A stretch of 64,000 nucleotides of DNA. Source: an uncultured Methanosarcinales archaeon. Lineage in GTDB: Archaea > Nanobdellota > Nanobdellia > Woesearchaeales > CAYZNE01. A program made the position numbers and the translations under genes. The stretch's first letter is position 1, and each line of letters opens with the position of its first letter. The notes beneath the pieces are model-generated. The model was not told where the DNA came from. It made no database searches and saw only the letters and a list, made by a program, of their open reading frames with translations. The stretch is taken from positions 106,422 through 170,421 of the forward strand of contig CAYONI010000001.1 in the NCBI GenBank assembly GCA_964405295.1, in the 5' to 3' direction. Positions 1 to 64,000 of the stretch are shown here, piece by piece.

Positions 1-91
1 AAGAGGAAGATTAGCTGGGTTTGATATAATTTCTGATACAATTCTAAAGAAAATATATTCCAATGCAAAAAATATTAAAGAGTTTTTATTA

Positions 92-364
92 ATGTGTAAT
101 TCTTTAGGGGAATACCTTGCAGATGAAGGAAAGCAAACTGCAAACTTATATGATTTAAAGCACATTGATACTGAGTCGTTTGATAAATTAGAAATTAATG
201 GTTCTGGTGTGTGCGATAATTGTGGTGCAGATCTCATAAAGATTGGTGGATATTGGAGATGCGAGAATTGTGACCAATATTGTTTAAATTGTGGCGCTTT
301 AGTTGAGGAAAAGGATTCTTATTGCCCTGAGTGTGGTGTTGAATTTGAGGAGGAATCAGAATGA
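92..364 (+). CDS. Small zinc-ribbon protein with four CxxC pairs (two predicted Zn ribbons). The reading frame is open back to position 2, so it may be the C-terminus of a longer protein that starts upstream of the window.
   Basis: Cys pairs CDNC, CENC, CLNC and CPEC. Its stop overlaps the next ATG (ATGA). A GAGGAGG Shine-Dalgarno for the downstream gene lies inside its 3' end. Confidence 0.5.
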   Translation: MCNSLGEYLADEGKQTANLYDLKHIDTESFDKLEINGSGVCDNCGADLIKIGGYWRCENCDQYCLNCGALVEEKDSYCPECGVEFEEESE

Positions 365-1068
365 AGAAATTAACTTGGTATCATGAATTAGGGTTCTACA
401 GTAATCCTTTTAGTATAAAACCCGCTGCATTCCATAATGATCTTTTTGGTTATGATATATTAATTGATAAATTAAATGAGCAAGTGTACAACTCAAATAT
501 TTTATTTATTCACGGGGCATATGGAACAGGCAAAACTACAATTCTTAAGAAAATTATTAATGAGTTTAGGGGTAAAAGAAAGGTTATCTATTATAATTGC
601 AACAAGCATGAAGGATCAATAGATTTTGATGGATTATTAATTGGTGCAGGAAACTTTTTTAGCAGATTATTCAAAATTAAAAAGAAGAATATGATAATGT
701 TGCTTGATGAAGCACAAGATTTAAACAAAAAAGATATGGATAATGTAAAAACTTATTTTGAACAAGATTTTTTTAGATCAGTTATTTTTGTTAGTAAGAA
801 AGAAGATATATTCTTACCTGTTGGTATAAAAAAAATTATTGGAAAAAATTATTATGATTTGAATAATATTTCTCAAGATGAAGCAGTTACTATGATAAGG
901 AAACGGATAGGTGACTTGCAGTTTTTATCTGATGAAATGATCATAAGAATTTTCAAAAGAAATAAGAATCCAAGAGCCTTCTTGAAAAATTGTGAAGATG
1001 TGTGCAGAAACACTTTTAATGATGGCGCAGAAAAGGTAACAAGTAAAGATGTTGCTAATTTTATTTAA
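361..1068 (+). CDS. P-loop AAA+ ATPase. The N-terminal region resembles an Orc1/Cdc6 core, but there is no winged-helix domain.
   Basis: Walker A GAYGTGKTT. Walker B-like hhhLDEAQD (MIMLLDEAQDL). The N-terminal pattern F..D.L.G.D..I..L......NILFIHG resembles the Orc1/Cdc6 lead-in. GAGGAGG lies 8 nt upstream of the ATG. Confidence 0.55.
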   Translation: MKKLTWYHELGFYSNPFSIKPAAFHNDLFGYDILIDKLNEQVYNSNILFIHGAYGTGKTTILKKIINEFRGKRKVIYYNCNKHEGSIDFDGLLIGAGNFFSRLFKIKKKNMIMLLDEAQDLNKKDMDNVKTYFEQDFFRSVIFVSKKEDIFLPVGIKKIIGKNYYDLNNISQDEAVTMIRKRIGDLQFLSDEMIIRIFKRNKNPRAFLKNCEDVCRNTFNDGAEKVTSKDVANFI

Positions 1069-1139
1069 TTTTATTTATTTTCTTTCTGAATCGTTCAAAA
1101 ATCCAAAAAATATATGAATTAAACTACCTTTTTCTATTT

Positions 1140-2780
1140 ATGCATCGCTTAGATAAGTCAATTATTGATGCTTTCAAAAAATTTGAAGGCAAGGAGCTTA
1201 CAACATCTGAAGTTGTTAAATTTGTATTTCCAGATGATGCCAATACTTTTGATATTGATTCAGGAGACATTCTTTTTATTGGTGGTGAAAAAAAAGTTAA
1301 AACTTCAGTAAGATATAAGAAATCATTATTGCATAAAAGACTACTTTATCATCTTAATAAGTTAGTTAAACAGAGTCTATTGAAGCTATCAGGGATTGAA
1401 GAATTTGGCGAAAAAAGATTTTCTTTGTCTGAGGATTATGATTTAGAATTAGATAAAAGCAAGAATAATTCTGTTCTTATAAGAAATAATATTAACCCAG
1501 TAACGCCAATTGAGGGATATGAATTAAAAAGAATAGTAAGAAAATTACATTCTACTCATTGGATTAATAGGTTAGATGCAGTTCTTCTAAACTCAAAAAG
1601 GTTTCAAAGTATAACCAAATTATCAGAATTATTAATAGATTTATTTGATGATGTCAATGATTGCATAGCTATAAATTCATTTGAATCACTCTTACAGGAT
1701 AAAGAAGAGAATTCTATAGAAGAGAATGTTAGAAAAATATCTGCGGATTGTACTGATTATAATAAGACTGTAGTATTCATAATTGATGTTGATAATATCT
1801 TTGATAAAGAGAAAGTTAAGGATTTTATAATTTTAATAGCTGATTTAAATAATGATAATATGCAGGTTATTTTCGAGGTTGATTCAGAATCCCTAACAAG
1901 GAATAATGTTGATTTGTTTAAATGTTTAATAGAGGAGTTCTCAAGCAAAAAGATTAAAGTTAATATTAAGAATAAGTCTATTTGTAATGTTCCAGTTTTC
2001 TTTGGTAAAGCAGGTGTTTATTCTTTTGATGAAAGAGAATGGAAACTTTATGAAAAGGAATTTGCAGATAAAACTTTTGGAGCAAGTTGTTGTTCTTCAA
2101 CACTAATAGTGGATGTATTGGAGTTTTTTAATAATTATTCAAATGCTCACGAGTTTAGAGAGTTTATACTAAAAGCAAACAAAGCATTGCTTGTTGCAAC
2201 AGTAAATAAAATAAAAGTTGCCACACATTATTTTAGAACAATAAATAAAGCCAATAAGCCCTATTCAAATGAGTTTTACTCTTTTGAAAGAAATTATATT
2301 CGATTCTGGAACTATAATTTTAAACTACTTGAAGAGGGAAATAATTTGTTAGATTTGTTTAAGACTCTAAAAGAAAAAACAGAAGAGTTTTATCTTAACG
2401 AAGAAACCATTTACAAAGCTTGTGGAATTCCAATAAGGTTTAAGGTAGTGTTCTCTTCTGCATTTAGGAAGTCTGATTTAACTATGACTCAAAGAACATA
2501 TAAGAAAACAACAATTCAGGATATAAGCTATTTTGATTCTCCTGAAACAATATCTTATCTTAAAATAAGAGAACGTCTTTTAAAAGTGTTTACTGGACTT
2601 GATAGAATAAGATTTTTTAGATCAAGTAATCTAACACCAAAAGATGTAATAAATGAATTTAGTTATATTTTACAAAATTTTAACTTGCCATTAGTCACTT
2701 ATGATTTTGCTAATATTAAGGGAAATACTAAACTTACAAGTTTTTTTAATGTGCCTAAGAAGAAAAGGAGAAAAAAATAA
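1140..2780 (+). CDS. Hypothetical 546-aa protein with no recognisable motif and a basic C-terminal tail (KKKRRKK). It is co-operonic with the ATPase and the ThyA-like gene.
   Basis: Long ORF with consistent codon usage. A 1-nt gap separates it from the next gene. Confidence 0.55.
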   Translation: MHRLDKSIIDAFKKFEGKELTTSEVVKFVFPDDANTFDIDSGDILFIGGEKKVKTSVRYKKSLLHKRLLYHLNKLVKQSLLKLSGIEEFGEKRFSLSEDYDLELDKSKNNSVLIRNNINPVTPIEGYELKRIVRKLHSTHWINRLDAVLLNSKRFQSITKLSELLIDLFDDVNDCIAINSFESLLQDKEENSIEENVRKISADCTDYNKTVVFIIDVDNIFDKEKVKDFIILIADLNNDNMQVIFEVDSESLTRNNVDLFKCLIEEFSSKKIKVNIKNKSICNVPVFFGKAGVYSFDEREWKLYEKEFADKTFGASCCSSTLIVDVLEFFNNYSNAHEFREFILKANKALLVATVNKIKVATHYFRTINKANKPYSNEFYSFERNYIRFWNYNFKLLEEGNNLLDLFKTLKEKTEEFYLNEETIYKACGIPIRFKVVFSSAFRKSDLTMTQRTYKKTTIQDISYFDSPETISYLKIRERLLKVFTGLDRIRFFRSSNLTPKDVINEFSYILQNFNLPLVTYDFANIKGNTKLTSFFNVPKKKRRKK

Positions 2781-2781
2781 A

Positions 2782-3429
2782 GTGGAAATAGTTGCTAAAA
2801 AACCAATAACTGCATGGAAAAAAACACTTCAAGCTATAATGGATAATGGTGTTGATTTTGTAGATAGAGACAAAAGGGTTTGTAGAGAGCTATTAAATCT
2901 TTTATTGGTTATAGAGTCCACAGATGATATTGAAGACCCTGTTGATGTAATGAAGAGTTTTAAGGATTTTGTTTATCCTAGTAAAGAAGAAATCGGAAAT
3001 GTTATTCTTGATAAGGTTGGTCGTTCTGGATACGGGTATAATTATGGGCAGAGGTTGTTTAATTATAAGGGTGTTAAAAATCAGATAGATGATTTTGTTT
3101 TGCCCTTATTAAAAAGTAATCCTTCTTCAAGAAGGGCAGTTGCAATTATTTATGATCCTTTAACTGATTCAAAGAAAAATAAAAAATCTATTCCTGCATT
3201 ATTAAGTGTTTATTTCAAGATTTTTAAAGGCGCTTTAGATGTTTCAATTGTAATTAGAAGTAATGATTTTTTTATTGGATGGCCTGCTAATATTCTTCAG
3301 ATTAATTTGTTGCAGAAATATATTGCTGAAAAATTAAAACTTCCAACAGGGAAACTTACTGTATTCTCAAATTCTGCCCATGTATTCCAAGAGAATTTTG
3401 ATAAAATTAACAAAATAATTGAAGATTAA
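2782..3429 (+). CDS. Thymidylate synthase (ThyA)-fold protein of the short archaeal type. The nucleophile Cys appears replaced by Ala.
   Basis: By-eye alignment to E. coli ThyA: [9 protein letters not shown] vs [21 protein letters not shown] vs [32 protein letters not shown] vs [29 protein letters not shown] vs [8 protein letters not shown]. GTG start with GGAG 11 nt upstream. The longer ORF called at 2701 overlaps the upstream gene. Confidence 0.65.
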   Translation: [215 protein letters not shown]

Positions 3430-3468
3430 TAGGTATATTTAAATATGCTTTATTGATTCTGTGGTTAT

Positions 3469-3822
3469 ATGAAAACAAGTCTTGCTGAAAAAATATTGGC
3501 TACTGAGCCTGAATTTCTAAGAATTGAAGATACAGAGTTATTCTTAATTCCAGAAAAATCATACAATAAAGAAATAACTAATAATTTATTAGGATATAAA
3601 ACATCTATTGGTCTTCATAATGTTAATGGGTTTGGAGTGTTATATTATTTAATAGAAAAATTTAAAGATTTATATGAATCCTCTATGTCCATAAATATGT
3701 TTCTAAAAGATATTGTTGATTATGCAGGAGTTGCTGATGATGTGCTTATTAGGAATTCGCCTTATTTAGATTATTCTGATCATGCTACACAATTATTAGA
3801 ACTTTTAGAGCTCAATAATTAA
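3469..3822 (+). CDS. Hypothetical acidic protein, 117 aa.
   Basis: ORF only; no motif recognised. Confidence 0.4.
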   Translation: MKTSLAEKILATEPEFLRIEDTELFLIPEKSYNKEITNNLLGYKTSIGLHNVNGFGVLYYLIEKFKDLYESSMSINMFLKDIVDYAGVADDVLIRNSPYLDYSDHATQLLELLELNN

Positions 3823-3895
3823 AACGATAGATTTATATATATGCAGTATAGACATATGTATATTAAGTTATTTAATAAAATAAGGGTGGTAAAAT

Positions 3896-4165
3896 ATGTT
3901 AAAAGTTAAAAGAATATCTGAAACATACGATATGAGAGTCTTCACTGATTCTGGTGATTATTTTGGTGATGTTGAAGAATCAATCCTTACTCATACTAAA
4001 ATTATTGGCTGGAGAGTAAGAGCGACCAAGAATTCATTTCTAAACAAGGTATTGGGAAATGCAAAAGGAGTTATTGTGCCTCATCAACTTGTAAAAAGTA
4101 TTGGCGACATAATGATTATCAACAAAACTGCAGTTCCTTCATATGCTGGTGATGATGACGATTAG
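3896..4165 (+). CDS. PRC-barrel domain protein.
   Basis: Size (~89 aa) and the pattern V.D..G...G.V.........G..V.......+........VP...V..IGD.MII are typical of archaeal PRC-barrel proteins. GGGTGG Shine-Dalgarno 6 nt upstream. Acidic DDDD C-terminus. Confidence 0.55.
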   Translation: MLKVKRISETYDMRVFTDSGDYFGDVEESILTHTKIIGWRVRATKNSFLNKVLGNAKGVIVPHQLVKSIGDIMIINKTAVPSYAGDDDD

Positions 4166-4230
4166 TTAGTTTTTATTTTTATTTTTCTTAGGCAATATTT
4201 TTTTCTCACTAGTCAAATTCTAATAACATT

Positions 4231-4238
4231 TTTATATA
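4231..4238 (+). promoter_or_regulatory. TATA box (TTTATATA) about 24 bp upstream of the polB ATG, consistent with a leaderless transcript.
   Basis: The sequence tttatata lies at the archaeal -26 to -30 spacing relative to the start codon. Confidence 0.4.
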
Positions 4239-4258
4239 AGCAACTTTTATATTAAATT

Positions 4259-6616
4259 ATGACAAAGCATAATGCATTCATAACCTATTCTACATATGAG
4301 CTTGATGAATACAATCAGGCAAGAATACATCTGTTTGGCAGATTAGAGGATGGTAAGAGTTTTCAAGCAGAGTTTGATTTTAAACCTTATTTTTTCATTA
4401 AGGTTGATCAGCAGAAAGAGGCAAAAAAGTTTGCAAAAAACCTCGCTGCACCAATAGAGTTTGAAGAAGTTGAGCTAACTAATTTTTATGATGAGAAAGT
4501 AATTAAGTTAATAACTGATGTGCCTAAGAGGGTTTCAGAATTAAGAAGAGAGTTTGAGAAGAATAATATTTCTTGTTACGAAGCAGATGTAAGATTTACA
4601 CAAAGATTTCTAATGGATAATAATCTTAAGGCTTCTTGCACTTTGTCAGGTATAGAACAGAAAAGATTTGGTGCAGACGTGGGTTTTGTTAATCCAAAAA
4701 TAGAGCCAATTGATTACTATCCTAAAAATTTAAAATTATTGTCTATAGATATAGAAACCAGTATGGATATGAAAACTCTCTATGCAATCTCGCTTTATTC
4801 TGATGATTTATCTATTGTTTTACTTAATGCTAAAGCAAAAGGATTGAATAATGCAGAAACTTTCTCAACAGAGAGAGAGTTATTGTTGAGATTTAAAGAA
4901 TTAATTTTTGAACAAGACCCTGATATTATTACTGGGTGGAATGTTATAAGTTTTGATTTTAATTTGTTAAAAAAGTTTTTTGAGCGATCTAAAGTTCCGT
5001 TTAATCTTGGGAGATTAGACGAGAAGTGCACTCTAAGAATAGAAGAGTCTTTCCTAAGAGATTCAAGTGCTGATTTTAAAGGACGATTATTAATTGATGG
5101 GTTAAAGCTTGCAAAAGTTTCATTTATTAAGCTTGATGATTATAAATTGAATACTGCTGCAAAAACAATTCTTGGTGATGAAAAACTTCTTACAGGTAGT
5201 CAGAGAGGAGAAGAAATTGAAGAATTATTTTTACACGACCAACAAAAGTTAGTTGATTATAATCTTAAAGATTCTATTCTTGTATATGATATAATCCAAA
5301 AATCTGGAATGCTTAAATTAACAATACAGAGATCTAAGTTGACTGGTATGTTGCTTGATAAAGTTCAGGCAAGCATTGCAACTTTTGATTCAGTTTATCT
5401 GCCAAGGTTAAGAGAAAAAGGTAAGGTTGCATTCTCTTTGTCATTTGCAAATCAACATGATCAAGTTAGAGGAGGGTTTGTCCTATCTTCTAAACCAGGA
5501 ATTTATGATTGGGTTATTGTTTGTGATTTTAAGAGTCTTTACCCTACAATATTTAGAACATTTAATCTAGATCCTTATAGTCATTTTTATGACGATAAAC
5601 AAATTCCTAAAGAATTGCCTAAAGAGAAATTTATTAAAGCACCTAATGGTGCGGTTTTTAAGAATCAAGACGGGATAATGCCTGAGTTACTAAAAGAGTT
5701 TTTTGAAGTAAGGGCTAAGGTTAAAAGAGAAAAGAATGAAATGGCAAGTTTTGCAATAAAAACAGTGATGGCTACTTTTTCAGGTGTTCTAGCAAGTTCT
5801 AATTGTAGGTTCTCAACTTTTAAGGTTGGTGACTCTATAACGAGTTTTGCCCAGATGATAATTAAACATACAATGAAGCTTATTGAAGATAAAGGTTATA
5901 ATGTTATTTATGGAGACACAGATAGTATTTTTATAGATTTACACGTCAATAGTCTTGAAGAAGCAAGAAAAAAGGGTAAAGAAATTGAAAAATATATTAC
6001 TGAGTATTTTACTAAATGGGTGACTGATAATTACGCAAGAAAATCTTATCTTGAGTTAGAGTTTGAAAAAACATATCAGAGATTTTTTATGCCCCGGGTT
6101 AGAGGTTCTGAATCTGGTGCAAAGAAAAGATATGCAGGATTATTAATTGATGATCTGGGCAAGGAGAAAGTCGATTTCACAGGTCTTGAATTTGTTAGAA
6201 GAGATTGGACAGCGGTTTCTAAGGATTTTCAGCTTGGTTTACTTGACAGAGTTTTTCATAAAAAAGAAGTTGTAAATTTTGTGAAGCAATTTGTTGAAGA
6301 TATAAAAAAAGGTAAATATGATGAAAAATTAATCTATAAAAAAGCTCTTAGAAAGAAGCTTGAAGATTATACAAAGACAACACCCCCCCATGTTAAAGCT
6401 GCTCGAAAGCTTAAGAAACTTACTTCTAATATCATTGAGTATTACATGACTGCGGATGGTCCAGAACCAATAGAAGACCTAAAACATTCTATTGATTATA
6501 ATCATTATATTAACAAGCAGATAAAGCCGATTGCAGACTCTGTACTTGTATTCTTTAATCAGAAGTTCGATGATGTTATAGAAGGAGTAGAACAGAAGAG
6601 TTTGTTCGGGTTTTAG
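4259..6616 (+). CDS. polB: Family B DNA polymerase, compact 785-aa form.
   Basis: Exo I DIETS. Motif A DFKSLYPTI. Motif C IYGDTDSIF. A KKRY-like motif GAKKRYAG is present. Confidence 0.9.
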   Translation: MTKHNAFITYSTYELDEYNQARIHLFGRLEDGKSFQAEFDFKPYFFIKVDQQKEAKKFAKNLAAPIEFEEVELTNFYDEKVIKLITDVPKRVSELRREFEKNNISCYEADVRFTQRFLMDNNLKASCTLSGIEQKRFGADVGFVNPKIEPIDYYPKNLKLLSIDIETSMDMKTLYAISLYSDDLSIVLLNAKAKGLNNAETFSTERELLLRFKELIFEQDPDIITGWNVISFDFNLLKKFFERSKVPFNLGRLDEKCTLRIEESFLRDSSADFKGRLLIDGLKLAKVSFIKLDDYKLNTAAKTILGDEKLLTGSQRGEEIEELFLHDQQKLVDYNLKDSILVYDIIQKSGMLKLTIQRSKLTGMLLDKVQASIATFDSVYLPRLREKGKVAFSLSFANQHDQVRGGFVLSSKPGIYDWVIVCDFKSLYPTIFRTFNLDPYSHFYDDKQIPKELPKEKFIKAPNGAVFKNQDGIMPELLKEFFEVRAKVKREKNEMASFAIKTVMATFSGVLASSNCRFSTFKVGDSITSFAQMIIKHTMKLIEDKGYNVIYGDTDSIFIDLHVNSLEEARKKGKEIEKYITEYFTKWVTDNYARKSYLELEFEKTYQRFFMPRVRGSESGAKKRYAGLLIDDLGKEKVDFTGLEFVRRDWTAVSKDFQLGLLDRVFHKKEVVNFVKQFVEDIKKGKYDEKLIYKKALRKKLEDYTKTTPPHVKAARKLKKLTSNIIEYYMTADGPEPIEDLKHSIDYNHYINKQIKPIADSVLVFFNQKFDDVIEGVEQKSLFGF

Positions 6617-6680
6617 GCAGTGAGAACTCTTGTAAATAACTAAATTTATAAATAAAATATAGATTTCTTTTATACATTGC

Positions 6681-6753
6681 AGCCCCGTAGTGTAGCGGCC
6701 AATCATCGAGGATTTTGGGTCCTTGGACTCCAGTTCGAATCTGGGCGGGGCTA
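6681..6753 (+). tRNA. tRNA-Gln (anticodon UUG).
   Basis: 7-bp acceptor stem AGCCCCG/CGGGGCT. T-arm TCCAG-TTCGAAT-CTGGG. Anticodon stem GAGGA/TCCTT with loop TTTTGGG. GG in the D-loop. Discriminator A. Confidence 0.7.
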
Positions 6754-6774
6754 TCAACTCGCGAGCGAATTTGA
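6741..6774 (+). repeat. Copy 1 of the att-like repeat. The core ctgggcggggctat is the tRNA-Gln 3' end. It is followed by right-flank motif A (caactcgcgagcgaatttga).
   Basis: The same core recurs at 7786..7799 and at 8568..8581 (one c>t change). Flank A recurs at 7800..7820. Confidence 0.7.
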
Positions 6775-6923
6775 TGGGTTTAACCTCATTTTTGCTCGTG
6801 AAACTTTTTTCTAAGAATTTTTAGATATAGTTTGTCATAAGGTAAATAAAATGAGGGTGGAAAATGCTCTTTTAGAAAAGTCTTAAGATAACATTTATAT
6901 ATGCTTAATGTTTTTAGTATGTT

Positions 6924-7736
6924 ATGAAATTATTTGTTATATGTATGTTTGTCGTAACTCTTTTTTTGTTAGTGGGTTGTTCTTCTATGCCTCATATTCA
7001 AGAGAATTCTCTTTGGGATAATAATTTAACTTTTGAAAAGTATTCTTCTACAAAAGTTTCTGATGGCTCTTCTAACTATATTTATCATACTTATAGAGTT
7101 CCTGATTCATCCTCTTTAATTGATAGCTTTGAGCTTCCTAATGAAAAAGGCATTATTCATATTAGCGGGTCATCCTATGATTATAATTTGTCTGAAGAAA
7201 TAATGTTTGGCACTTCTACTGGAGGCCCTATGAAGTATTCTTTGAGTTTGCGTTTTGAAAATCCTACTAATTCCAAATCTTATGTCTCATTTAATCTTGA
7301 ATCAACAAGAGCTCTCAAAGAAGATTATTTAATGGTTGAACATTCTAATATGGATTTTAGTATCAGATATTCTGATAATGGGAACAGTAAAACTGTACAA
7401 TTGCCATCTGGTATTGCTGATATAGTCTTCTCTAATGGATATATCTTGTCACATTCAGAGAGTATTGGAGATGGAGATTTTCATGAATTCTTAGATTCCT
7501 ATATTGGTTCTGGTTATATTGTTATCAAAGAGGATTATTATTATGAATGTCCTGAAATAGTAAAGGTTAATGGAAAAGAAATTGGGAAGAGTGATGAAGA
7601 TTATGTTTGTCTTTTTAGTGGATTTTATGTTCCTGCTCAAGTGATTCCTTTCACTTCAAATTTGCTTGAAGGGCCTATCTTCGAAAAGATATGCTATAAT
7701 AATCTTCCACATTCTGAACTCTTAAAGGCCTGTTAG
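6924..7736 (+). CDS. Secreted lipoprotein, 270 aa. It is the cargo of cassette 1.
   Basis: Signal peptide MKLFVICMFVVTLFLLVGCSS with lipobox LVGC. Confidence 0.55.
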   Translation: MKLFVICMFVVTLFLLVGCSSMPHIQENSLWDNNLTFEKYSSTKVSDGSSNYIYHTYRVPDSSSLIDSFELPNEKGIIHISGSSYDYNLSEEIMFGTSTGGPMKYSLSLRFENPTNSKSYVSFNLESTRALKEDYLMVEHSNMDFSIRYSDNGNSKTVQLPSGIADIVFSNGYILSHSESIGDGDFHEFLDSYIGSGYIVIKEDYYYECPEIVKVNGKEIGKSDEDYVCLFSGFYVPAQVIPFTSNLLEGPIFEKICYNNLPHSELLKAC

Positions 7737-7770
7737 TCTATACAATAAGCATAAGCATAGTTTATTAAGA

Positions 7771-7820
7771 TTTACATAATAAAGACTGGGCGGGGCTATT
7801 AACTCGCGAGCGAAGTTTGA
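7771..7820 (+). repeat. Copy 2 of the att-like repeat, attP-like. It has left-flank X (tttacataataaaga), the core and right-flank A. A stem-loop and T-run follow.
   Basis: Left flank X is shared with copy 3. The core and flank A are shared with copy 1. Downstream, agcgaag-tttgagggtgcaaaccc-ttttttattcgct forms a hairpin followed by a T tract. Confidence 0.65.
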
Positions 7821-7905
7821 GGGTGCAAACCCTTTTTTATTCGCTTTTTATCTTTCTAAACATTATTTTTAATTTTTAAAAAAGAGAAGAAGTCAAATGA
7901 AGTTT

Positions 7906-8460
7906 TTATTCTTTCTTACTATATCTTAATATTGCTATTCCTTCTTGAATTGTACATTCAGTTAGATGCAAATCTATGTTGGGATTTTCTTTTAAAAACA
8001 AGGGTATTCCCTCACCTAGAATAATAGGAATAATACCAACAATATACTCATCAATAACATCTGCTTTTACAAATGCATCAATTGACCCAGCACCACCAAA
8101 CAACCAAATATCCTTATCATTTTCTTTTTTTAATTCTAATATTTGACTTACAACATCCCCACTAATAAATTCAACATCATATTTAGTATCTAATTTTTCA
8201 TTACTAGTTACATAAACCTTTTGGGATTTAAACATTTCAATAGTTCCTGGCGGAGCATCTAAGAAAGCCCTTTTCCCCATTACTACAATACTCATATCCG
8301 CTATAAATTCAGGGAAGCTAAATTGTTTTCTTGTATCATGACTTTTATCTCCATCTCCCTTAATCCAATCAAAACCACCATTTTTAGTAGCAATATAACC
8401 ATCCAAACTAATTGCTAAATTGAGTATTATTTTTCCATTCATTTTTATGAAATCCTCCAA
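7906..8460 (-). CDS. Dihydrofolate-reductase-like protein of the RibD C-terminal / YwjB family. It is the cargo of cassette 2.
   Basis: N-terminal motif ILNLAISLDGYIATKNGGFDW. C-terminal motif WLFGGAGS......ID. Length 184 aa. Confidence 0.6.
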   Translation of the reverse strand: MEDFIKMNGKIILNLAISLDGYIATKNGGFDWIKGDGDKSHDTRKQFSFPEFIADMSIVVMGKRAFLDAPPGTIEMFKSQKVYVTSNEKLDTKYDVEFISGDVVSQILELKKENDKDIWLFGGAGSIDAFVKADVIDEYIVGIIPIILGEGIPLFLKENPNIDLHLTECTIQEGIAILRYSKKE

Positions 8461-8551
8461 ATTAAAACCATTTGAATTAATAGTAACTTTAACTATTTAA
8501 ATAATATTGTTATATGACCCCTTACTTTTTGTAATACATTTCTGAGTGTGA

Positions 8552-8581
8552 TTTACATAAATAAAGACTGGGTGGGGCTAT
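8552..8581 (+). repeat. Copy 3 of the att-like repeat, attR-like. It has left-flank X plus the core ctgggtggggctat, followed by a different right flank.
   Basis: The 30 nt tttacataaataaagactgggtggggctat match 7771..7799 with two changes. Confidence 0.65.
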
Positions 8582-8759
8582 TATTTCTTCTAAATAAATC
8601 ACAACAGATTTTCACTTCCGGTTGCATCCAAAAATTTTTTGGGGGAGTGCCTCGAGCAAAGCTCTAGGGAATGCTGATCATAGTTATTGATTTCTGTATA
8701 GGTAGATTAGGTCTGTTGGATTAAATAGAATTAGTTATAACAAAAAGAAAAAAAGCAAA

Positions 8760-8906
8760 TTACTCTAATTTGCCAATTTTAAACATCTTAGTACCACACT
8801 CAGGACAAGTTCCTTTTACGCAGTCTCTTCCGTTTTTCATTTTATCTGCTTTAGCATCTTTCATTACTCTTTTTGCTCTACATTTCATACAATATCCTTC
8901 AACCAT
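8760..8906 (-). CDS. Small zinc-ribbon protein, 48 aa (MVEGYCMKCRAKRVMKDAKADKMKNGRDCVKGTCPECGTKMFKIGKLE). It is below the ORF-track size cutoff.
   Basis: Two CxxC pairs in an uninterrupted 49-codon ORF found by reading the reverse strand by hand. It sits in a 550-bp region that otherwise has no annotation. Confidence 0.4.
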   Translation of the reverse strand: MVEGYCMKCRAKRVMKDAKADKMKNGRDCVKGTCPECGTKMFKIGKLE

Positions 8907-11580: not shown

Positions 11581-12573
11581 ATGAATTTTCAAGATTTACA
11601 CTACATAGAGAACTTCCAATTTTATCTAGACTTAGCTATAAGAAAAGCTGAAGAAAAAGCAAGACTTCTAAGGCAAAGTATTAAGTTGAGTAGTGTTCCA
11701 AGAATAATTAAATCAAAAAGAATTGAAATAGAAAAATTGCGAGTAATTAGAGATGTTCTAAGTGAAAGATTGGGAGATATTCATCTTAAGTTTCCAAGTG
11801 TTGATAATTTGCCTGAGTTTTATAATCAGCTAATGAAAGTAAATCTTGATGTGGATATGTTAAAGAAGGCTTTGGGAAGTATTGCCTGGGCAAGGGCTAA
11901 TATTACAAAAATAGCTAAGATGTATACAATTAAGATAAAAGGTTCAAACAATCAAGGAGAAGTTTCAAAACTTGGTTCTTCTGCACTCGGAAGAATCTCA
12001 AGTATAATGAGTCAAATCAGCAAGTTTCTTTTATTTGTAGAAGGTGCAAGAAAGATAATGAGAAATTTTCCTGCAGTAAAAACTTCTTTGTTTACAATTT
12101 CAATTGCAGGATTTCCTAATGTTGGTAAATCAACTCTTCTAAAGAAGATAACTTCTTCTGATCCAGAAATTGCTGTTTATGCTTTTACAACAAAGCAATT
12201 AAATACTGGTTATTCTGTGCAGAATAATGTTAAGTTACAATTTATTGATACTCCTGGAACTCTTGCAAGATTTGAGAAAATGAATACTATTGAGCGTCAA
12301 GCGTTTCTTGCAATGAAGTATGCTTCACAGATGATAATTTATGTTTATGATATTACTGAAACTTATCCTATTGAAGATCAAGATAGGCTCCTTGGATTAA
12401 TTGAGGAAATAGATAAGCCAATTATTATTTATATAAGTAAGACTGACATCATCGATAAAAGTAAAGTTGATGAATTTATTAAGAATTTTTCCAAAGACCA
12501 TAAAATTTGTTTAACAGGTGAAGAGTTGTTCACTGAAATTCTGAAAGTTGAAAAGAATGTTTACGAAGAATAA
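11581..12573 (+). CDS. Nog1/Obg-like nucleolar-type GTPase.
   Basis: G1 GFPNVGKST. G3 DTPG. G4 SKTD. The N-terminal helical domain is typical of archaeal Nog1, and the length is ~330 aa. Confidence 0.75.
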   Translation: MNFQDLHYIENFQFYLDLAIRKAEEKARLLRQSIKLSSVPRIIKSKRIEIEKLRVIRDVLSERLGDIHLKFPSVDNLPEFYNQLMKVNLDVDMLKKALGSIAWARANITKIAKMYTIKIKGSNNQGEVSKLGSSALGRISSIMSQISKFLLFVEGARKIMRNFPAVKTSLFTISIAGFPNVGKSTLLKKITSSDPEIAVYAFTTKQLNTGYSVQNNVKLQFIDTPGTLARFEKMNTIERQAFLAMKYASQMIIYVYDITETYPIEDQDRLLGLIEEIDKPIIIYISKTDIIDKSKVDEFIKNFSKDHKICLTGEELFTEILKVEKNVYEE

Positions 12574-13113
12574 TTATTTTTTCTTTTTCAATTTACTTTT
12601 AACTGCTTTGTCAGAAATGATTGCAGAATTTCCAGATGTATCTTCTAGTGTAAGTTTGATTTTATCGTCTCCAGAAAGAACATTTCTTATTTTTTTAAGA
12701 TGATTTTTTGCAGTCTTTCTCTCGGTTTTTCCCTCTGCATTATTTCGTGCAAATTCAATTATTTTTTCAATTCTTCTTATGATTCCCTCAACATTGGTTA
12801 TGTATCCATTTGATGCATCGTTTGCTTCAACTGTTGCAATTCTTCCGAGTTTAATATTTGCATGACTTGACTTAATCACTCTTATTTTCAAATCTTCTTC
12901 AGAGCTTACTTCTATATCAAACTTTGATGGTTCCTGTTGATTATCAAATTCAACATCTGCTTTGTGATAACCGCACCCATTACAGTTCATAGAGAAAATA
13001 TATGCTAACCCAAAAAAAGGGATTTCTCTTTCTGCTTCCATTAGTGTCAAAGTGTTCTTATTGCAGATTGGACATGGTTGTCCTTCTAATATGTCTGGCT
13101 CTTGTCCTGTCAT
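12574..13113 (-). CDS. ZPR1-type zinc-finger protein.
   Basis: CPICNKNTL....CNGCGYHKADVE zinc finger followed by a ZPR1 A-domain-like beta region. The ATG at 13113 (MTGQEPD...) is preferred. The track start at 13212 is a TTG. Confidence 0.7.
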   Translation of the reverse strand: MTGQEPDILEGQPCPICNKNTLTLMEAEREIPFFGLAYIFSMNCNGCGYHKADVEFDNQQEPSKFDIEVSSEEDLKIRVIKSSHANIKLGRIATVEANDASNGYITNVEGIIRRIEKIIEFARNNAEGKTERKTAKNHLKKIRNVLSGDDKIKLTLEDTSGNSAIISDKAVKSKLKKKK

Positions 13114-13296
13114 ATCCTGCTTTGTTTTTTTTGTCTTTAAATAATTATCTAAATAATACACGGGGTAGTTGTTATTGGTGAATAGTAACACAATAGAAAA
13201 CTTTATAAACAAAAGTTACATTCTCTTGTCTAAGTTACCTATTATATAATAGTAACGCTTATTTTAACAAAAATTTCACAAGGGGGATAAAATAAA

Positions 13297-14655
13297 ATGG
13301 AAGCAGATGTACCGGTTGATATTCAACAAACTGTTATTGATTCTTTAAATCAACAAAATCAAGTTATTCTTGAGAGTAATTTAGAGGATAGCGTTAATGT
13401 TAATGATCGTGTTAATACTACTGTAAGATATGATTCAACAGAATTAAGAGCACTTAAATCAAATTTTACTTGGGATTATAAAGGTTTATGGCCTAATAAA
13501 GAAGGTGAAACTGAACGTATATTTTTTGTTAGCCCAAAGGCTAAAACACTCTCTGGTAAGCATTCATGGTTAACTAGATTAGCAGAGAATCTTGGAATTA
13601 AGGATTATGAGCTTCAAAAGGAGTTTTGCAATCAAACTGTTCAGAATACTATTGAATTCTATAAGAGCAATCCTGAAATTGCAGATGCTTTACATATTGA
13701 TCCTATTGCAATTGAAAAAAGATTAAAATTAACAAACGCACAGTATCCTAATAGTAGAGGAGACCCAGAGCTTTTAGGCAATTTACTTGATATTATGCAA
13801 GATTTAGTTGTTAAACCAGCACAATATTCTCAGGAAATACAAAAGGTTTTTTCAGTTTCAGCTGTTGATCCAACCTATATGGTAGACAATCTTGTGCTAT
13901 CATCAGATCTTTTAGAACAAAGACAAAATGACATTGAAGGAACACAGGATAGTCTTGGGGTTGCCCAACAAGAATTTGGAAGAGCATTAAGTAATCTTGA
14001 TTCTTATGTTTCAAACGTATTAAGTAATCTTGATTCAACTATTGGAGATGTAGTAAATGCTGAAAGATCAGATAATTCTAGATGGTCTACTTTTGCAACA
14101 GGGAATTATGTAGAAGGTAAGAAACCAGTTAATGGTCTTGGTATAGGATACAATCTTACTGATGGATTGTTAATGGATGCAAGCGTTTTACATTCTCAAG
14201 GAAATACTAACTCTAATGTAGGTCCTATGACAACAACTCTAATCGGTCCTAATGGTGATGAAGCATTTAGTCAAGAAACTATAACTACAAAAATGGATGA
14301 TGCTCTTGGGATTGGCTTCTCTATGTCTTATTTAGTTGAGTTAAATAAGATTTTGGGTTTTGGTTTTGAAACAGGTTATTTTTTCATACCTAAAGCAGGA
14401 ACTGTTACTTACTCAAAAGAAGAAGGATTTAATTTTGTTGGTGGGAACACGCAATCCAATACTACAACTGTACTTAAGGACAGAAAGTCAAACGAGGAAA
14501 CATTTTATGCTGGCGTAAAAACTTCTGCAAAATTACGTAGAAATTTAGGTTTAGAGTTTGTAGCAGGTGGTTTTTATGACAAACCAAAAGATTTTTTCAA
14601 CAAAAAAGTAAAAGGTAATGTTGGATTATCTGCAAAAGTCAGATATAAGTTTTAA
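13297..14655 (+). CDS. Hypothetical 452-aa protein. The C-terminal third is beta-rich and ends ...KVRYKF. No signal peptide is present.
   Basis: AGGGGGAT Shine-Dalgarno upstream. TAATG overlap with the next gene. Confidence 0.5.
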   Translation: MEADVPVDIQQTVIDSLNQQNQVILESNLEDSVNVNDRVNTTVRYDSTELRALKSNFTWDYKGLWPNKEGETERIFFVSPKAKTLSGKHSWLTRLAENLGIKDYELQKEFCNQTVQNTIEFYKSNPEIADALHIDPIAIEKRLKLTNAQYPNSRGDPELLGNLLDIMQDLVVKPAQYSQEIQKVFSVSAVDPTYMVDNLVLSSDLLEQRQNDIEGTQDSLGVAQQEFGRALSNLDSYVSNVLSNLDSTIGDVVNAERSDNSRWSTFATGNYVEGKKPVNGLGIGYNLTDGLLMDASVLHSQGNTNSNVGPMTTTLIGPNGDEAFSQETITTKMDDALGIGFSMSYLVELNKILGFGFETGYFFIPKAGTVTYSKEEGFNFVGGNTQSNTTTVLKDRKSNEETFYAGVKTSAKLRRNLGLEFVAGGFYDKPKDFFNKKVKGNVGLSAKVRYKF

Positions 14656-14669
14656 TGAGGTCAAATAAA

Positions 14670-17600
14670 ATGAATAAAAAATTACTTATTCCGTTATTTT
14701 TATTGCTTATTTTTATTCCATCAGTTTTTGCAGTTATTACATCAGGTCAATTTGATGGTAATCAGATAATTGTAAATATTGATCAAGGGGATTCAATAGG
14801 TTTTGAAGCTTATGCTTATAGTGGATCATCAAATGTTTGGGGAAGTGTTTTTCTAGAGCATGGTGAATCAACTTATTCTTATGTTTTTGAAGAGTTTGAT
14901 GAGGCAGACGGAAATTATTATAACACTTTCACATTAAGTCCAGATATCTATAATAATGATTGTGGAACTTTTGACATTTATATCCAAGGTTACGATATGT
15001 ACCAAGGAGAAGAGTTTTCATATTCTTTTATGATAAGAGCATATGTTGCTTGTCCTAATCACGAACCAACTTTCAACGGATACATCCAAGGTCAAACTAT
15101 TGACGATGGTGAAGAATTCGTAGATATTACTTTAACTGATTACTTCTCAGATGAAGACGAAGATGATGTTTTAACTTTCACTGCAGACAATGTTGAATTA
15201 GACATTGAATTCAATGATGGTGTTGCAACTATTACTTATGATAATTTTATTGGTGGTGAATTAGTAACTTTCATAGCTTGTGATTTAGCAGGTGAATGTG
15301 CTTACAGTAATCCTGTTTATTTTACTGTTAACGAAGTTGTTACTAATACTGCTCCAACTTTTAGTGGTGTTATTTCAAATCAGGTTATTGATGATGGTGA
15401 AGTATTTGTTGATATTGTTCTTACTGATTATTTTAGTGATGCAGATGAGAATGATGTTTTAACTTTCTCTGCTGATAATGATTTATTTGATATTGAATTT
15501 AATGATGGTATTGCAATTATTACTTATACTGAGATTGGAAGTGAATGTATTACTTTTACTGCTTGTGATTTAGCAGGTGAATGTGTAAATAGTAATGTTG
15601 TTACTTTCACTGTTAACAAAGTTATTGTTAATACTGCTCCAACTTTTAGTGGTGTTATTTCAAATCAGGTTATTGATGATGGTGAAGTATTTGTTGATAT
15701 TGTTCTTACTGATTATTTTAGTGATGCAGATGAGAATGATGTTTTAACTTTCTCTGCTGATAATGATTTATTTGATATTGAATTTAATGATGGTATTGCA
15801 ATTATTACTTATACTGAGATTGGAAGTGAATGTATTACTTTTACTGCTTGTGATTTAGCAGGTGAATGTGTAAATAGTAATGTTGTTACTTTCACTGTTA
15901 ACGAAGTTATTCCAGAAAATAACATTTTAAACTTTGAAAACGATTTTGAAGACATTGAAATGTATATTGGGGAAGAAGTTCAAATTAATCTTTGGGCAAA
16001 CACGGTTTACACAAATGCAAATGGTAACCCTTTGAATTTAGCAACTCTTAATTATAGTATTCAAGATAATACTTGTAACGGAATTGTTTATTTTGAGATT
16101 GACAATGAAGAGTTAACAGTAAGTTCATCTAATGTTATTGATAGTTGTTATTTTGAAATCTATGTTGAAGAGACTGTTTACTCAAATGAAATGCAAGTAA
16201 CTAATAGCAATTCAATTAGTGTTAATGTTATACCAGAACCACAAGTATTTATAGATGATATTAATTGCTTATTTGATCAAGTTCCTGCAAATGGGATACA
16301 AGCTTGTCAAATAAACGTTTTAGATAACTCTGTAATTCCTGTCGCAATAAATGGTGTGACTGTTGAATTGTATTATATGGGTACTAATGAGTTAATTGGA
16401 ACTTGTGTTACTGAAAATTTAGGAACTTGTGGTGTTGAAGATTTTGAAGTCTCAGGAACTCTTGGGATGTACGAAGTTTATGCATACGCATTTTTAGAAA
16501 GTTATATTAATGATACTGATATGGACCCAACTGATATTTTTGAAGTTGTTTCAAACACCTACAATATTCAAGACTTTTTCGTTTATGATGATGTTTCAGG
16601 TTTTGGAACAGGCAACATGGTTGTTGACTTTTTTAGAGGAGACGATGTCTATGTCGAATTTACTGTTTACGAAGATGGAACTCAATTAATGACTGAAATG
16701 GTTTCAAGTGTTAATCTTTATGATCAAACTTCAGGAGAATCTATTGGTATGAATTTAATAGATTTTGATAATGGAGTTTATTATTATGAATTAGATGCAA
16801 TTCCTTTGAGTGATGGTTTCCTAGGGGAAAATCTTGTTTTTTCATACGTTTTAAACAATGGAAATGCTGGCCAGGCAAGTCAACCAATTACTATTTACAA
16901 CAATGTTCCTGTTTGGGATGTAATTCCTGCACAGAATCTTGATGTTGAAGAAACTATTGAAATTGATTTAGCTGGTTATGCTTTTGATTTAGAAGATGGC
17001 GATGACGAATTAATTTTTGACATGGTATCTTATCCTACAAATCTTGTTAATTATACTTTTGACGGTTCAACTTTAGAACTTACTGGATTAAATGCAGGTA
17101 ATGGTGCAATCACTGTTAGTGTTGAAGACACTGAAGGAGATATGGTAACTACTTCATTTAATGTGGCTGTCGAAGATGTTCCTTCGCAAGTTATTGCATA
17201 CTTTGATGCACCTTCAAGAACACATAAGGGAGATGTTGTTATTTTCGATGCGACTGGATCACAGGGAGACATAGTTGAATATGTTTGGAATTTTGGTGAT
17301 GGGTCAACAAGTAGAAAAATCGCTCCAAATTCAGAAAAGATTATAAATAATGTTCAAGCGACTAGAGGTCTCGGCAATAATAATGTAAATACTAACAGGG
17401 AAATTGTAGAACACATTTACGGAACTATTGGTTACTTAACTGTAACTCTAACTGTTTATAATGTTGAGGGAGATAGTGATACTTATTCAAGAGTTATCAA
17501 TGTAGATGCACGTGGAGCTTGCTCTGACGGTCTTGATAACGATGGCGACAATCTTATTGACATGGACGATCCTGGTTGTCAAAATTCAGAAGGAAAAACT

Positions 17601-17951
17601 GAATTTAATTTTAGGTCAGGATTGGAAAGTGGAGTAGTTTTTGACTCAATTACAATTTGGTCAGATAGTGGTTATGATGCTCATCCAGGAGATAATGTTT
17701 ACGTTAATGTTAAGGTTGCTAATAATGCAGGCGAAGAAGCTGAGGATTTGAGAATTGCTCTTATGAGTCTTGATTTAGGTATGAAAATTAAATCATATCA
17801 ATTTGACTTAGATAATGGAGATACAAAGACAGTTAAGATGAGCTTTGAATTACCTCAGGATATTCGAGAAGGGGAGTACCCTTTGAGAGTGAGCGTAGCA
17901 AATGACGACCTTATTCACAGCAATTATTGGTTCTTTTACGTAGAGAACTAA
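14670..17951 (+). CDS. Large secreted surface protein or adhesin with three cadherin-like, acidic, Ca-binding-type tandem domains and a C-terminal CSDGLDNDGDNLIDMDDPGC module.
   Basis: Signal peptide MNKKLLIPLFLLLIFIPSVFA. Three ~95-aa repeats, two of them identical. DxDxD-rich segments. An alternative start is the TAATG-overlap ATG at 14655. Confidence 0.7.
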   Translation: MNKKLLIPLFLLLIFIPSVFAVITSGQFDGNQIIVNIDQGDSIGFEAYAYSGSSNVWGSVFLEHGESTYSYVFEEFDEADGNYYNTFTLSPDIYNNDCGTFDIYIQGYDMYQGEEFSYSFMIRAYVACPNHEPTFNGYIQGQTIDDGEEFVDITLTDYFSDEDEDDVLTFTADNVELDIEFNDGVATITYDNFIGGELVTFIACDLAGECAYSNPVYFTVNEVVTNTAPTFSGVISNQVIDDGEVFVDIVLTDYFSDADENDVLTFSADNDLFDIEFNDGIAIITYTEIGSECITFTACDLAGECVNSNVVTFTVNKVIVNTAPTFSGVISNQVIDDGEVFVDIVLTDYFSDADENDVLTFSADNDLFDIEFNDGIAIITYTEIGSECITFTACDLAGECVNSNVVTFTVNEVIPENNILNFENDFEDIEMYIGEEVQINLWANTVYTNANGNPLNLATLNYSIQDNTCNGIVYFEIDNEELTVSSSNVIDSCYFEIYVEETVYSNEMQVTNSNSISVNVIPEPQVFIDDINCLFDQVPANGIQACQINVLDNSVIPVAINGVTVELYYMGTNELIGTCVTENLGTCGVEDFEVSGTLGMYEVYAYAFLESYINDTDMDPTDIFEVVSNTYNIQDFFVYDDVSGFGTGNMVVDFFRGDDVYVEFTVYEDGTQLMTEMVSSVNLYDQTSGESIGMNLIDFDNGVYYYELDAIPLSDGFLGENLVFSYVLNNGNAGQASQPITIYNNVPVWDVIPAQNLDVEETIEIDLAGYAFDLEDGDDELIFDMVSYPTNLVNYTFDGSTLELTGLNAGNGAITVSVEDTEGDMVTTSFNVAVEDVPSQVIAYFDAPSRTHKGDVVIFDATGSQGDIVEYVWNFGDGSTSRKIAPNSEKIINNVQATRGLGNNNVNTNREIVEHIYGTIGYLTVTLTVYNVEGDSDTYSRVINVDARGACSDGLDNDGDNLIDMDDPGCQNSEGKTEFNFRSGLESGVVFDSITIWSDSGYDAHPGDNVYVNVKVANNAGEEAEDLRIALMSLDLGMKIKSYQFDLDNGDTKTVKMSFELPQDIREGEYPLRVSVANDDLIHSNYWFFYVEN
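15345..15914 (+). repeat. Perfect in-frame tandem duplication of 2 x 285 bp inside the surface-protein gene. A diverged third copy lies at ~15060..15344.
   Basis: 15345..15629 and 15630..15914 are identical apart from one junction base (aacaaagtt vs aacgaagtt). Confidence 0.85.
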
Positions 17952-54335: not shown

Positions 54336-54427
54336 CAGGCCTGACGGGATTCGAACCCGCGATCTACAGCTCTCTCTGAAATTAATCATAGGAGGCTGTC
54401 GCCTTATCCAGGCTAGGCTACAGGCCT
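54336..54427 (-). tRNA. tRNA-Arg (anticodon CCU) with a putative 17-nt intron at position 37/38.
   Basis: Acceptor AGGCCTG/CAGGCCT. D-arm GCCT/AGGC. T-arm GCGGG-TTCGAAT-CCCGT. Anticodon stem ACAGC/GCTGT encloses a 24-nt loop, read as CTCCTA + intron + A. Confidence 0.55.
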
Positions 54428-63849: not shown

Positions 63850-64000
63850 AATGAGCGAACAATACAATGATCATATGCAGAAATTAGATGTAGAACTTAA
63901 ACTCAGAGGATTCTCACCACACACAATAAGAGCATATCTGAGATACAACAAACAATTCCTAGAATTCATTAAAAAAGACCCAAAAACTATCAATAATGAT
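63850..64000 (+). CDS. Tyrosine recombinase (XerA/XerC/D-like integrase). Only the N-terminus is present; the gene is truncated by the window end.
   Basis: MSEQYNDHMQKLDVELKLRGFSPHTIRAYLRYNKQFLEFI matches the integrase N-terminal SAM-like core-binding motif (S..T..aY...l..F). Confidence 0.5.

Follow-up and report, generated by a model that had tools for sequence, protein, structure and literature searches.

A probable tandem accretion array of integrase-less elements at a re-used tRNA-Gln(UUG) attachment site in a DPANN archaeon

The stretch analysed here, 64 kb of contig CAYONI010000001.1 and referred to throughout as the window, carries a tRNA-Gln(UUG) gene whose 3' end is found twice more downstream, the three copies bounding two short units (E1 and E2) with one gene each and no integrase. 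We consider it likely that repeated use of a tRNA-Gln(UUG) attachment (att) site has produced a tandem accretion array here, with E1 and E2 as integrase-less derivatives, in an archaeon which homologues of its family-B DNA polymerase (PolB) place among the Woesearchaeota/Nanoarchaeota-type DPANN archaea. An earlier reading of the window from its letters alone (hereafter the sequence-only reading) had taken the three junctions for the attL, attP-like hybrid and attR sites of two tandem site-specific insertions, and had suggested an undescribed, recombinase-less cassette system. The former claim is supported by an empty site in relatives and by a cognate family of integrases. The latter is not, since it is precisely this core that serves a conventional family of tyrosine integrases; moreover, tandem arrays and integrase-less remnants bounded by att sites, which had been held to be no standard class of element, are established (PMC5704250, PMC6563490, PMC8371274).

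The tRNA-Gln(UUG) gene is intact according to ARAGORN and to a local scan with Rfam RF00005 (46.4 bits); that a whole-window Rfam gathering scan missed it is a filter effect and no sign of a defective tRNA. The repeated core, CTGGGCGGGGCTAT, is 14 nt long and consists of the last 13 nt of the gene and the T that follows, its start coinciding with the 3' strand of the T stem. A second copy is exact and a third, CTGGGTGGGGCTAT, carries one C>T change. When up to two mismatches were allowed, a search of the window returned these three copies and the 3' end of an unrelated tRNA-Val gene, against 0.05 matches expected, and none of 100 shuffled sequences reached this count. The junctions read, in order along the window, tRNA-core-A, X-core-A and X-core-B. 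Flank A, YAACTCGCGAGCGAA followed by a stem-loop, lies downstream of copies 1 and 2 with 79% identity across 58 nt (Smith-Waterman, p=0 in 1000 shuffles), and flank X, GATTTACATAA(A)TAAAGA, lies upstream of copies 2 and 3, where 17 of 18 positions match with one indel (p=0.0004 against shuffles). The threefold occurrence of the core, the order of its flanks and the improbability of chance recurrence, all asserted by the sequence-only reading, therefore hold on the repeats found and on shuffle tests.

The cores are spaced 1045 and 782 nt from start to start, leaving inserts of 1031 and 768 nt between them. Each insert carries one gene, and the two genes are oppositely oriented with their own upstream regions; the GC content of both units equals that of the host. 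The E1 product (270 aa) has a signal peptide and a Cys, fitting its earlier description as a lipoprotein, with no match in Pfam or NCBIfam and three homologues among 1.84e9 representative proteins. The E2 product is a RibD_C protein (PF01872, 67.2 bits) whose exact sequence is on record on seven contigs. The stretches between the core copies yielded no integrase of any type, as the sequence-only reading had said, and tblastn with the integrases described below detected no remnant of their family in E1 or E2, nor any member of it across the window. E1 and E2 share near-perfect sequence only beside the core, over about 15 nt on the A side and about 17 nt on the X side. Because the register of the stem-loop and all internal sequence differ between them, they appear to be two diverged members of one A/X arm family; the insert sizes that had been proposed (about 1.03 and 0.77 kb) stand, and the dimer offered as an alternative does not.

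To identify the native flank, we compared the PolB neighbourhoods of graded relatives, namely contigs L015/L016 (PolB 92%) and L017, L019 and L022 (79%). In L015/L016 and in L022 the tRNA-Gln 3' end joins a B-type flank directly (tRNA-core-B), and this flank is homologous to the one behind copy 3 in the window (L015, p=0; L022, p=0.006; 1000 shuffles). By comparison of these loci, the arrangement represents the empty site for which the sequence-only reading had proposed a search. Pairwise shuffle tests sort the flanks into three families without cross-similarity: A, B, and a flank A' met in a variant of the same species described below. Since the empty sites carry B and the flank families are separate, B is chromosomal and A and X are the ends of elements. 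Between tRNA-Gln and the conserved DUF5679 gene, each relative and lineage examined has a gene content of its own, and tblastn of the relatives' loci returned no homologue of the lipoprotein-like or RibD_C cargo. Flank A is known from four instances, two in the window, one in L019 (79%, broken synteny) and one in L014, a contig of an unrelated DPANN-like metagenome-assembled genome (MAG) whose tRNA-Gln sequence differs from that of the window; each instance abuts a tRNA-Gln end or its duplicate. Scans of metagenomes and genomes for core plus A returned only the organism of L010/L011/L014 and two chance bacterial matches, an absence that carries little weight as the collection misses contigs known to bear the motif. 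The A motif never occurred in these scans away from a tRNA-Gln end or duplicate, which argues against a generic terminator motif. In IMG/VR, searches with core plus A, the A stem-loop, X plus core, the A' motif and the integrase protein or profile gave either no matches or 15 chance ones with no tRNA core nearby.

Several further features of the relatives' loci were observed. Relative to the window and to all of the 79% relatives, L015 has an inversion at the integration hot spot: its positions 12359-13186, compared with window 6617-6755 and 8727-8760, hold the tRNA-Gln promoter, the tRNA, the B trailer and about 600 bp in inverted orientation. In Thermococcales, integrases reportedly drive inversions between tRNA-like sites. 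The native B trailer also holds an inverted, imperfect copy of the tRNA-Gln T arm (GGACTCCAGTT..AATCTG..GGGC; L015 12952-13056, minus strand, and L022 12498-12572; compare window 8582-8620), which follows the tRNA's own difference (GGACTCC in L015 and GGACCCC in L022) and would pair with the 3' half of the tRNA as a long hairpin. In the window, where E1 and E2 part B from the tRNA, this copy is degraded; a role in processing or termination, or an origin as a relic of recombination, may be considered for it. In L017, a 5.4-kb block (12603-17752) between tRNA-Gln and DUF5679 encodes an 853-aa RNase_H_2-like protein, a 645-aa DnaG/Toprim primase-like protein and a 143-aa open reading frame (ORF), resembles the replication module of another mobile element and has no core repeat; weak integrase-like tblastn matches (E about 1-3) lie immediately after the tRNA. 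In L019 (12497-14700), the A arm is followed by an NYN-domain gene, a DDE_Tnp_1 transposase and giant Big_12 proteins, the DUF5679/AsnC synteny is gone and no attR lies within 10 kb, which could reflect an A-type insertion that is larger or has been rearranged, or else a rearrangement mediated by an insertion sequence. The tRNA-Gln genes of L022 and of L031 (introduced below) contain an intron, and that of the window does not.

A variant of the same species carries an integrase gene at this very site. Contig L027 (sample ERZ27316756), retrieved through an exact-protein look-up of the window PolB, is identical to window positions 1-6754, without a mismatch in 6,754 nt, and diverges from the base after the core. 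Beyond the core it continues with the new flank A' and then, 107 nt downstream of the core, with an ORF that runs to ...NRALMMFLFDSGL at the contig edge. The facing contig from this sample, L008/L003, matches the window from 6740 on (one mismatch in 8887 nt) and opens with 441 nt of foreign DNA ending in ...cagtct, CTGGGCGGGGCTAT and CAACTCGCGAG; this DNA is the right end of another element, joined to core-A-E1-E2. Contigs from other samples lack the insert, L025 for example being contiguous and 100% identical over 12,616 nt. One population therefore appears to have an element with an integrase gene (E0) inserted between the tRNA core and E1, and a second population to be without it, the breakpoint lying exactly at the core. 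Because this presence/absence polymorphism breaks there, we take the site to be a live att site; the polymorphism is the strongest available sign of this, and an indirect one with regard to excision.

The right end of E0 (L008 300-456, equal to L003 11689-11845 on the minus strand) includes a second core variant, CTGGGCAGGGCTAT, which lies 79 nt upstream of the core in L008 and is identical to the tRNA-Gln core of L017. Of the 65 nt between the two cores, one part aligns to the A' arm and another to the right (Z-like) arm of the element itself, so that this gene-less unit is reduced to its arms alone. The sequence after this second core, TTTACTATCAAAC, resembles the native trailer of L017 (p=0.015); the core variant and its trailer may trace a former residence in an L017-like host. 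Both cores lie within a 66-aa ORF of L008 that reads through them (LSGQGY / VSGRGY) and has a GGAGG motif upstream.

The L027 ORF has 63 homologues at E<=1e-8, which are PF00589 tyrosine recombinases 370-445 aa long, found mostly on short metagenomic contigs and, where named, labelled Woesearchaeota or archaeon. The family is distantly Xer-like (72 bits against NCBIfam XerA, for which the cutoff is 220; best PDB match 4a8e, E=2e-6). Its closest full-length member, P0125, is 71% identical to the L027 fragment and is encoded on L031, a contig of a different MAG, where an intron-containing tRNA-Gln(UUG) is followed by an arm homologous to A' and then by the integrase gene; the core lies 107 nt upstream of the integrase ATG in L027 and about 94-95 nt upstream in L031. 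In L014, a 62-aa fragment of an integrase catalytic domain lies about 380 nt past the A arm (53% identical to family member P0121, E=4e-18; 81% to P0157), and since the A arm precedes this fragment, A-armed elements once carried this integrase family as well. The recombinase that the sequence-only reading proposed to seek alongside the motif is thus found at the same core in L027, beside tRNA-Gln in L031 and as a fragment in L014. In the GC-richer host of a distant member, L034, three tandem tRNA-Gln-like ends bound two units, one of 5.1 kb with an integrase and one of 0.6 kb with two tiny ORFs and no integrase. As L034 and L008 both show units that are short and integrase-less or reduced to arms, multi-core arrays holding shrunken units are typical of the integrase family.

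Two observations on these integrases stand apart. The predicted integrase ORF of L034 (9929-11248) begins upstream of the att core and reads through it (MSKNPGGAIER...), such that integration would swap the first integrase codons, a mild trait of the SSV (Sulfolobus spindle-shaped virus) type not seen in L027 or L031. The integrase P0123 (L032/L033) was considered as part of a complete 8-kb element and set aside as uninformative, adjoining neither a tRNA nor a core. Within the window, positions 63851-64000 encode the N-terminus of an Xer-type tyrosine recombinase, cut by the window end (...LRGFSPHTIRAYLRYN...; Phage_int_SAM_4, 25 bits). The partial recombinase gene noticed by the sequence-only reading is thus real; what is visible of it is an Xer-type N-terminal SAM-like domain outside the element integrase family, and the gene, 55 kb from the array, is probably a separate, chromosomal XerA.

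The stem-loops that follow core copies 1 and 2 are stable (z = -6.2 and -3.3, respectively). The A-arm stem-loop is kept in all four instances of the arm, with changes that are one-sided or re-paired, and is followed by a U/T-run; that of E2 is re-paired in a register different from that of E1, and the B and A' flanks have no comparable fold. A palindrome, CTCGCGAG, lies 3 nt past the tRNA end and is invariant across the four A arms despite the divergence of the stem-loop. The most economical reading of stem-loop and U-run would be an element-borne terminator or insulator that substitutes for the displaced tRNA trailer, and the palindrome could be a candidate protein-binding site. The hairpins proposed by the sequence-only reading thus exist, and their supposed likeness to attC sites is rejected on motif grounds: the R''(RYYYAAC)/R'(GTTRRRY) pair is missing at junctions 2 and 3, and junction 1 has a single RYYYAAC only.

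The array is best explained by repeated use of one att site. Integrative elements coding for an Xer-like tyrosine integrase would bring an attP that holds the last 14 nt of the tRNA, and recombination inside the core would restore the tRNA and shift B, the native trailer, beyond the distal end of the insert, attP (X-core-A) and attB (tRNA-core-B) yielding tRNA-core-A...X-core-B. A second insertion at either product site would produce the hybrid X-core-A junction and stacked elements. Each unit, made up of both arms and one cargo gene, would most likely stem from an integrase-bearing parent through internal deletion before or after insertion, with the parent's useful cargo gene retained; because the integrase follows immediately after the left arm in L014, L027 and L031, one deletion per unit would suffice. 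The A arm would set its stem-loop and T-run right behind the tRNA, probably in place of the displaced terminator. Both units might still move, whether in trans or, joined in one composite to an integrase element next to them, in cis. The order of events may also have been different, with units that were already minimal being inserted in trans.

Several points weigh against this account. The empty site of L015 sits within a locally inverted segment, the junction itself being unoccupied. The interior of E0 is unassembled, and L027 and L008 are joined as the two ends of one element by parsimony. E0 is the only integrase element seen in the species, and its A'/Z arms differ from the A/X arms of E1 and E2; action of its integrase on the two units is accordingly conjectural. 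An origin by deletion is deduced rather than seen, as no integrase remnant is detectable in E1 or E2, and no intact A-type integrase element was recovered. Finally, the assemblies examined contain no allele that lacks only E1 or only E2, and no circular X-core-A junction.

The last of these points also counts against an explanation that we regard as unlikely, namely that E1 and E2 are live single-gene cassettes mobilised in trans, which excise as X-core-A circles and are re-inserted by an integrase encoded elsewhere, with the tRNA-Gln end as an integron-like platform. This would agree with the intact hybrid junction, with the fact that both units, each holding a single gene unrelated to the other's, keep full and nearly identical arms beside the core, with the palindrome that stayed invariant in four A arms while the adjacent stem-loop diverged, with the suitable integrase family circulating in the same population and with the second short integrase-less unit of L034. 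However, the motif is absent from IMG/VR, only two units of the X-core-A type are known, and the gene-less 65-bp unit shows that pure deletion relics occur in arrays too. That both arms are retained is moreover partly a matter of ascertainment, as units are by definition recognisable only when both cores survive, and one that lost a core would merge with its neighbour and go unrecognised. Nor are there attC motifs, and the opposite orientations and own upstream regions of the two genes are unlike promoterless integron cassettes. A more specific version, about as improbable, would make the A/X units working miniature cassettes, each a gene plus about 45 nt of X-core-A, moved in trans by an Xer-like DPANN integrase that needs little beyond the 14-nt core; if true, the tRNA-Gln end would be an integron-like platform for gene capture in genome-reduced archaea.

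We give very little credence to A being the conserved native tRNA-Gln trailer, with copies 2 and 3 made by local segmental duplication. A does stand behind tRNA-Gln in three organisms (those of the window, L019 and L014) and folds into a terminator-like hairpin. Nevertheless, the closest relative, L015, and also L022 have B after the tRNA, the window itself keeps B behind copy 3, and in L014 an integrase fragment follows A; segmental duplication would leave the shared X arm and the unrelated cargo unexplained, and the polymorphism within the species breaks exactly at the core edge. On the B-type empty sites this candidate was rejected. Least credible of all is an artefact of assembly or binning, with sequences joined into a chimera at a repeat that is short and GC-rich. 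In its favour are the metagenomic source and the contigs that end near the site in one sample, but these breaks match a genuine alternative allele, a 14-nt repeat is much shorter than the k-mer of 141 that the contig names imply for the assembler, and the identical three-copy arrangement is found in at least four independent assemblies (ENA, JGI, Logan) and is therefore no assembly artefact. A split tRNA or separate 3'-half gene was rejected as well, the copies being 14 nt only with no T-loop or anticodon arm, and so was an SSV-type integrase partitioned around the tRNA, as E1 and E2 have no integrase-like ORF or remnant and the core lies upstream of the integrase gene in L027 and L031.

Among known systems, the accretion array most resembles the cis-mobilisable elements (CIMEs) of Streptococcus, which have lost their integration genes, keep attL and attR, accrete with a functional element and can be mobilised in cis (Pavlovic 2004; Bellanger 2011; review PMC5704250). 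Similar to CIMEs, E1 and E2 keep attL and attR without integration and transfer genes, and the window together with its L027/L008 variant matches the CIME layout, in which such units and a related element with an integrase stand in tandem at a target gene's 3' end and the internal att sites are chimeric; in ERZ27316756 the tandem partner would be E0, if its two contig ends are linked as supposed. In contrast to CIMEs, the host is archaeal with no conjugation module known, the units are about 0.8-1.0 kb with one gene each, their derivation from a larger parent is presumed and their cis-mobilisation putative. As regards decay of the CIME type, the A-arm family is tied to a decayed integrase in L014 and L008 has a gutted 65-bp unit; no remnant is detectable in E1 or E2.

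In Archaea, tandem arrays from re-use of att sites are known, and integrated elements without an integrase have been put down to loss after integration (Thaumarchaeota integrated mobile genetic elements, PMC6563490; PMC8371274). With such elements the present locus shares a tyrosine integrase at a tRNA 3' end and duplication of that end as a direct repeat; it differs in an integrase family whose resemblance to Xer is, by the XerA score given above, only distant. The direct repeat of the tRNA end, the intact tRNA and the empty site are all found here. An internal integrase is absent from E1 and E2 and present in E0 (the L027 variant), and the A arm of L014 has only a remnant behind it. The smallest cryptic archaeal element reported (PMC6563490/PMC8371274) measures 2.6 kb and, unlike E1 and E2, still encodes its integrase. 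DPANN lineages go unmentioned in the searched portion of the text of a review of archaeal tyrosine recombinases (PMC8371274).

The head-to-tail array of short, mostly single-gene units between recombination sites, with no recombinase inside, also recalls integrons. However, no IntI adjoins the window array (the family integrase scores 24 bits against TIGR02249, with a cutoff of 265), the repeats are plain duplications of a tRNA end without attC R''/R' motifs, and gene orientation is mixed with own upstream regions. SSV-type ('suicidal') integrases are likewise archaeal, tRNA-targeting tyrosine recombinases; here the integrase gene is unsplit upon integration in L027 and L031, and the predicted ORF start overlaps the core in L034 only. 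Nor does the locus belong to the IMEX (integrative mobile elements exploiting Xer), which use the host Xer at the chromosomal dif site: here a tRNA 3' end is targeted, and the elements encode a dedicated integrase of their own.

The remainder of the window is an AT-rich (30% GC) archaeal segment with genes for the family-B DNA polymerase, TFIIE, Lrp/AsnC, NOG1 and ZPR1. Positions 14655-17951 encode a 1098-aa PKD-type surface protein with near-identical internal repeats of about 100 aa; its orthologue on other contigs of the same species has 998 aa, and L008 aligns here at 97.9% with indels, which points to a polymorphism in repeat copy number. An intron-containing tRNA-Arg(CCU) at 54336-54427 (minus strand) is found by Rfam and by intron-aware ARAGORN and missed by ARAGORN in its default mode. 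The features of the array are listed in Table 1.

Table 1. Coordinates of the tRNA-Gln(UUG) gene, core copies, units, arms and cargo genes, numbered from the first base of the window.
Feature	Coordinates	Strand	Evidence
tRNA-Gln(UUG), integration target and left half of attB	6681..6753	+	ARAGORN, Rfam
Core copy 1 (putative attL): T-stem 3' strand, acceptor 3' strand, discriminator and T	6741..6754	+	
Core copy 2: putative hybrid attR(E1)/attL(E2), attP-like X-core-A	7786..7799	+	
Core copy 3 (putative attR), C>T	8568..8581	+	Core search
B flank, displaced native tRNA-Gln trailer	8582..8612	+	Homology to L015 (p=0) and L022 (p=0.006)
Unit E1, 1031 nt, integrase-less	6755..7785	+	Between core copies 1 and 2; absent from L015, L022, L017, L019
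Unit E2, 768 nt, integrase-less	7800..8567	+	Between core copies 2 and 3; absent from relatives
E1 A arm: CTCGCGAG palindrome, stem-loop 6759-6801, T-run	6755..6815	+	Homologous to A arms of L014 and L019
E1 X arm GATTTACATAATAAAGA	7769..7785	+	p=0.0004 against E2 X arm
E2 A arm: palindrome as in E1, variant stem-loop 7808-7846, T-run	7800..7860	+	
E2 X arm GATTTACATAAATAAAGA	8550..8567	+	Alignment to E1 X arm
E1 cargo: 270-aa secreted or lipoprotein-like protein, near-orphan	6924..7736	+	
E2 cargo: RibD_C / DHFR-like reductase, 178 aa, ATG start	7906..8442	-	PF01872

We would like to note that the novelty of the locus is modest: it lies in a tRNA-Gln-specific integrase family, an active att hot spot in a DPANN archaeon and unusually small units of 0.8-1.0 kb, and involves no new class of recombination. 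Nevertheless, characterised mobile elements are very few in DPANN archaea and characterised integration systems are lacking, and the locus defines an attB, namely the final 14 nt of tRNA-Gln(UUG), together with a family of about 60 integrases tied to this site. The natural presence/absence polymorphism suggests that the site is currently active in one population. Accessory genes, here for a near-orphan surface protein and a RibD_C reductase, appear to enter and persist in reduced genomes as stripped-down islets at one hot spot, and the pair of integrase and core is a candidate genetic tool for an uncultivated and genetically intractable group.

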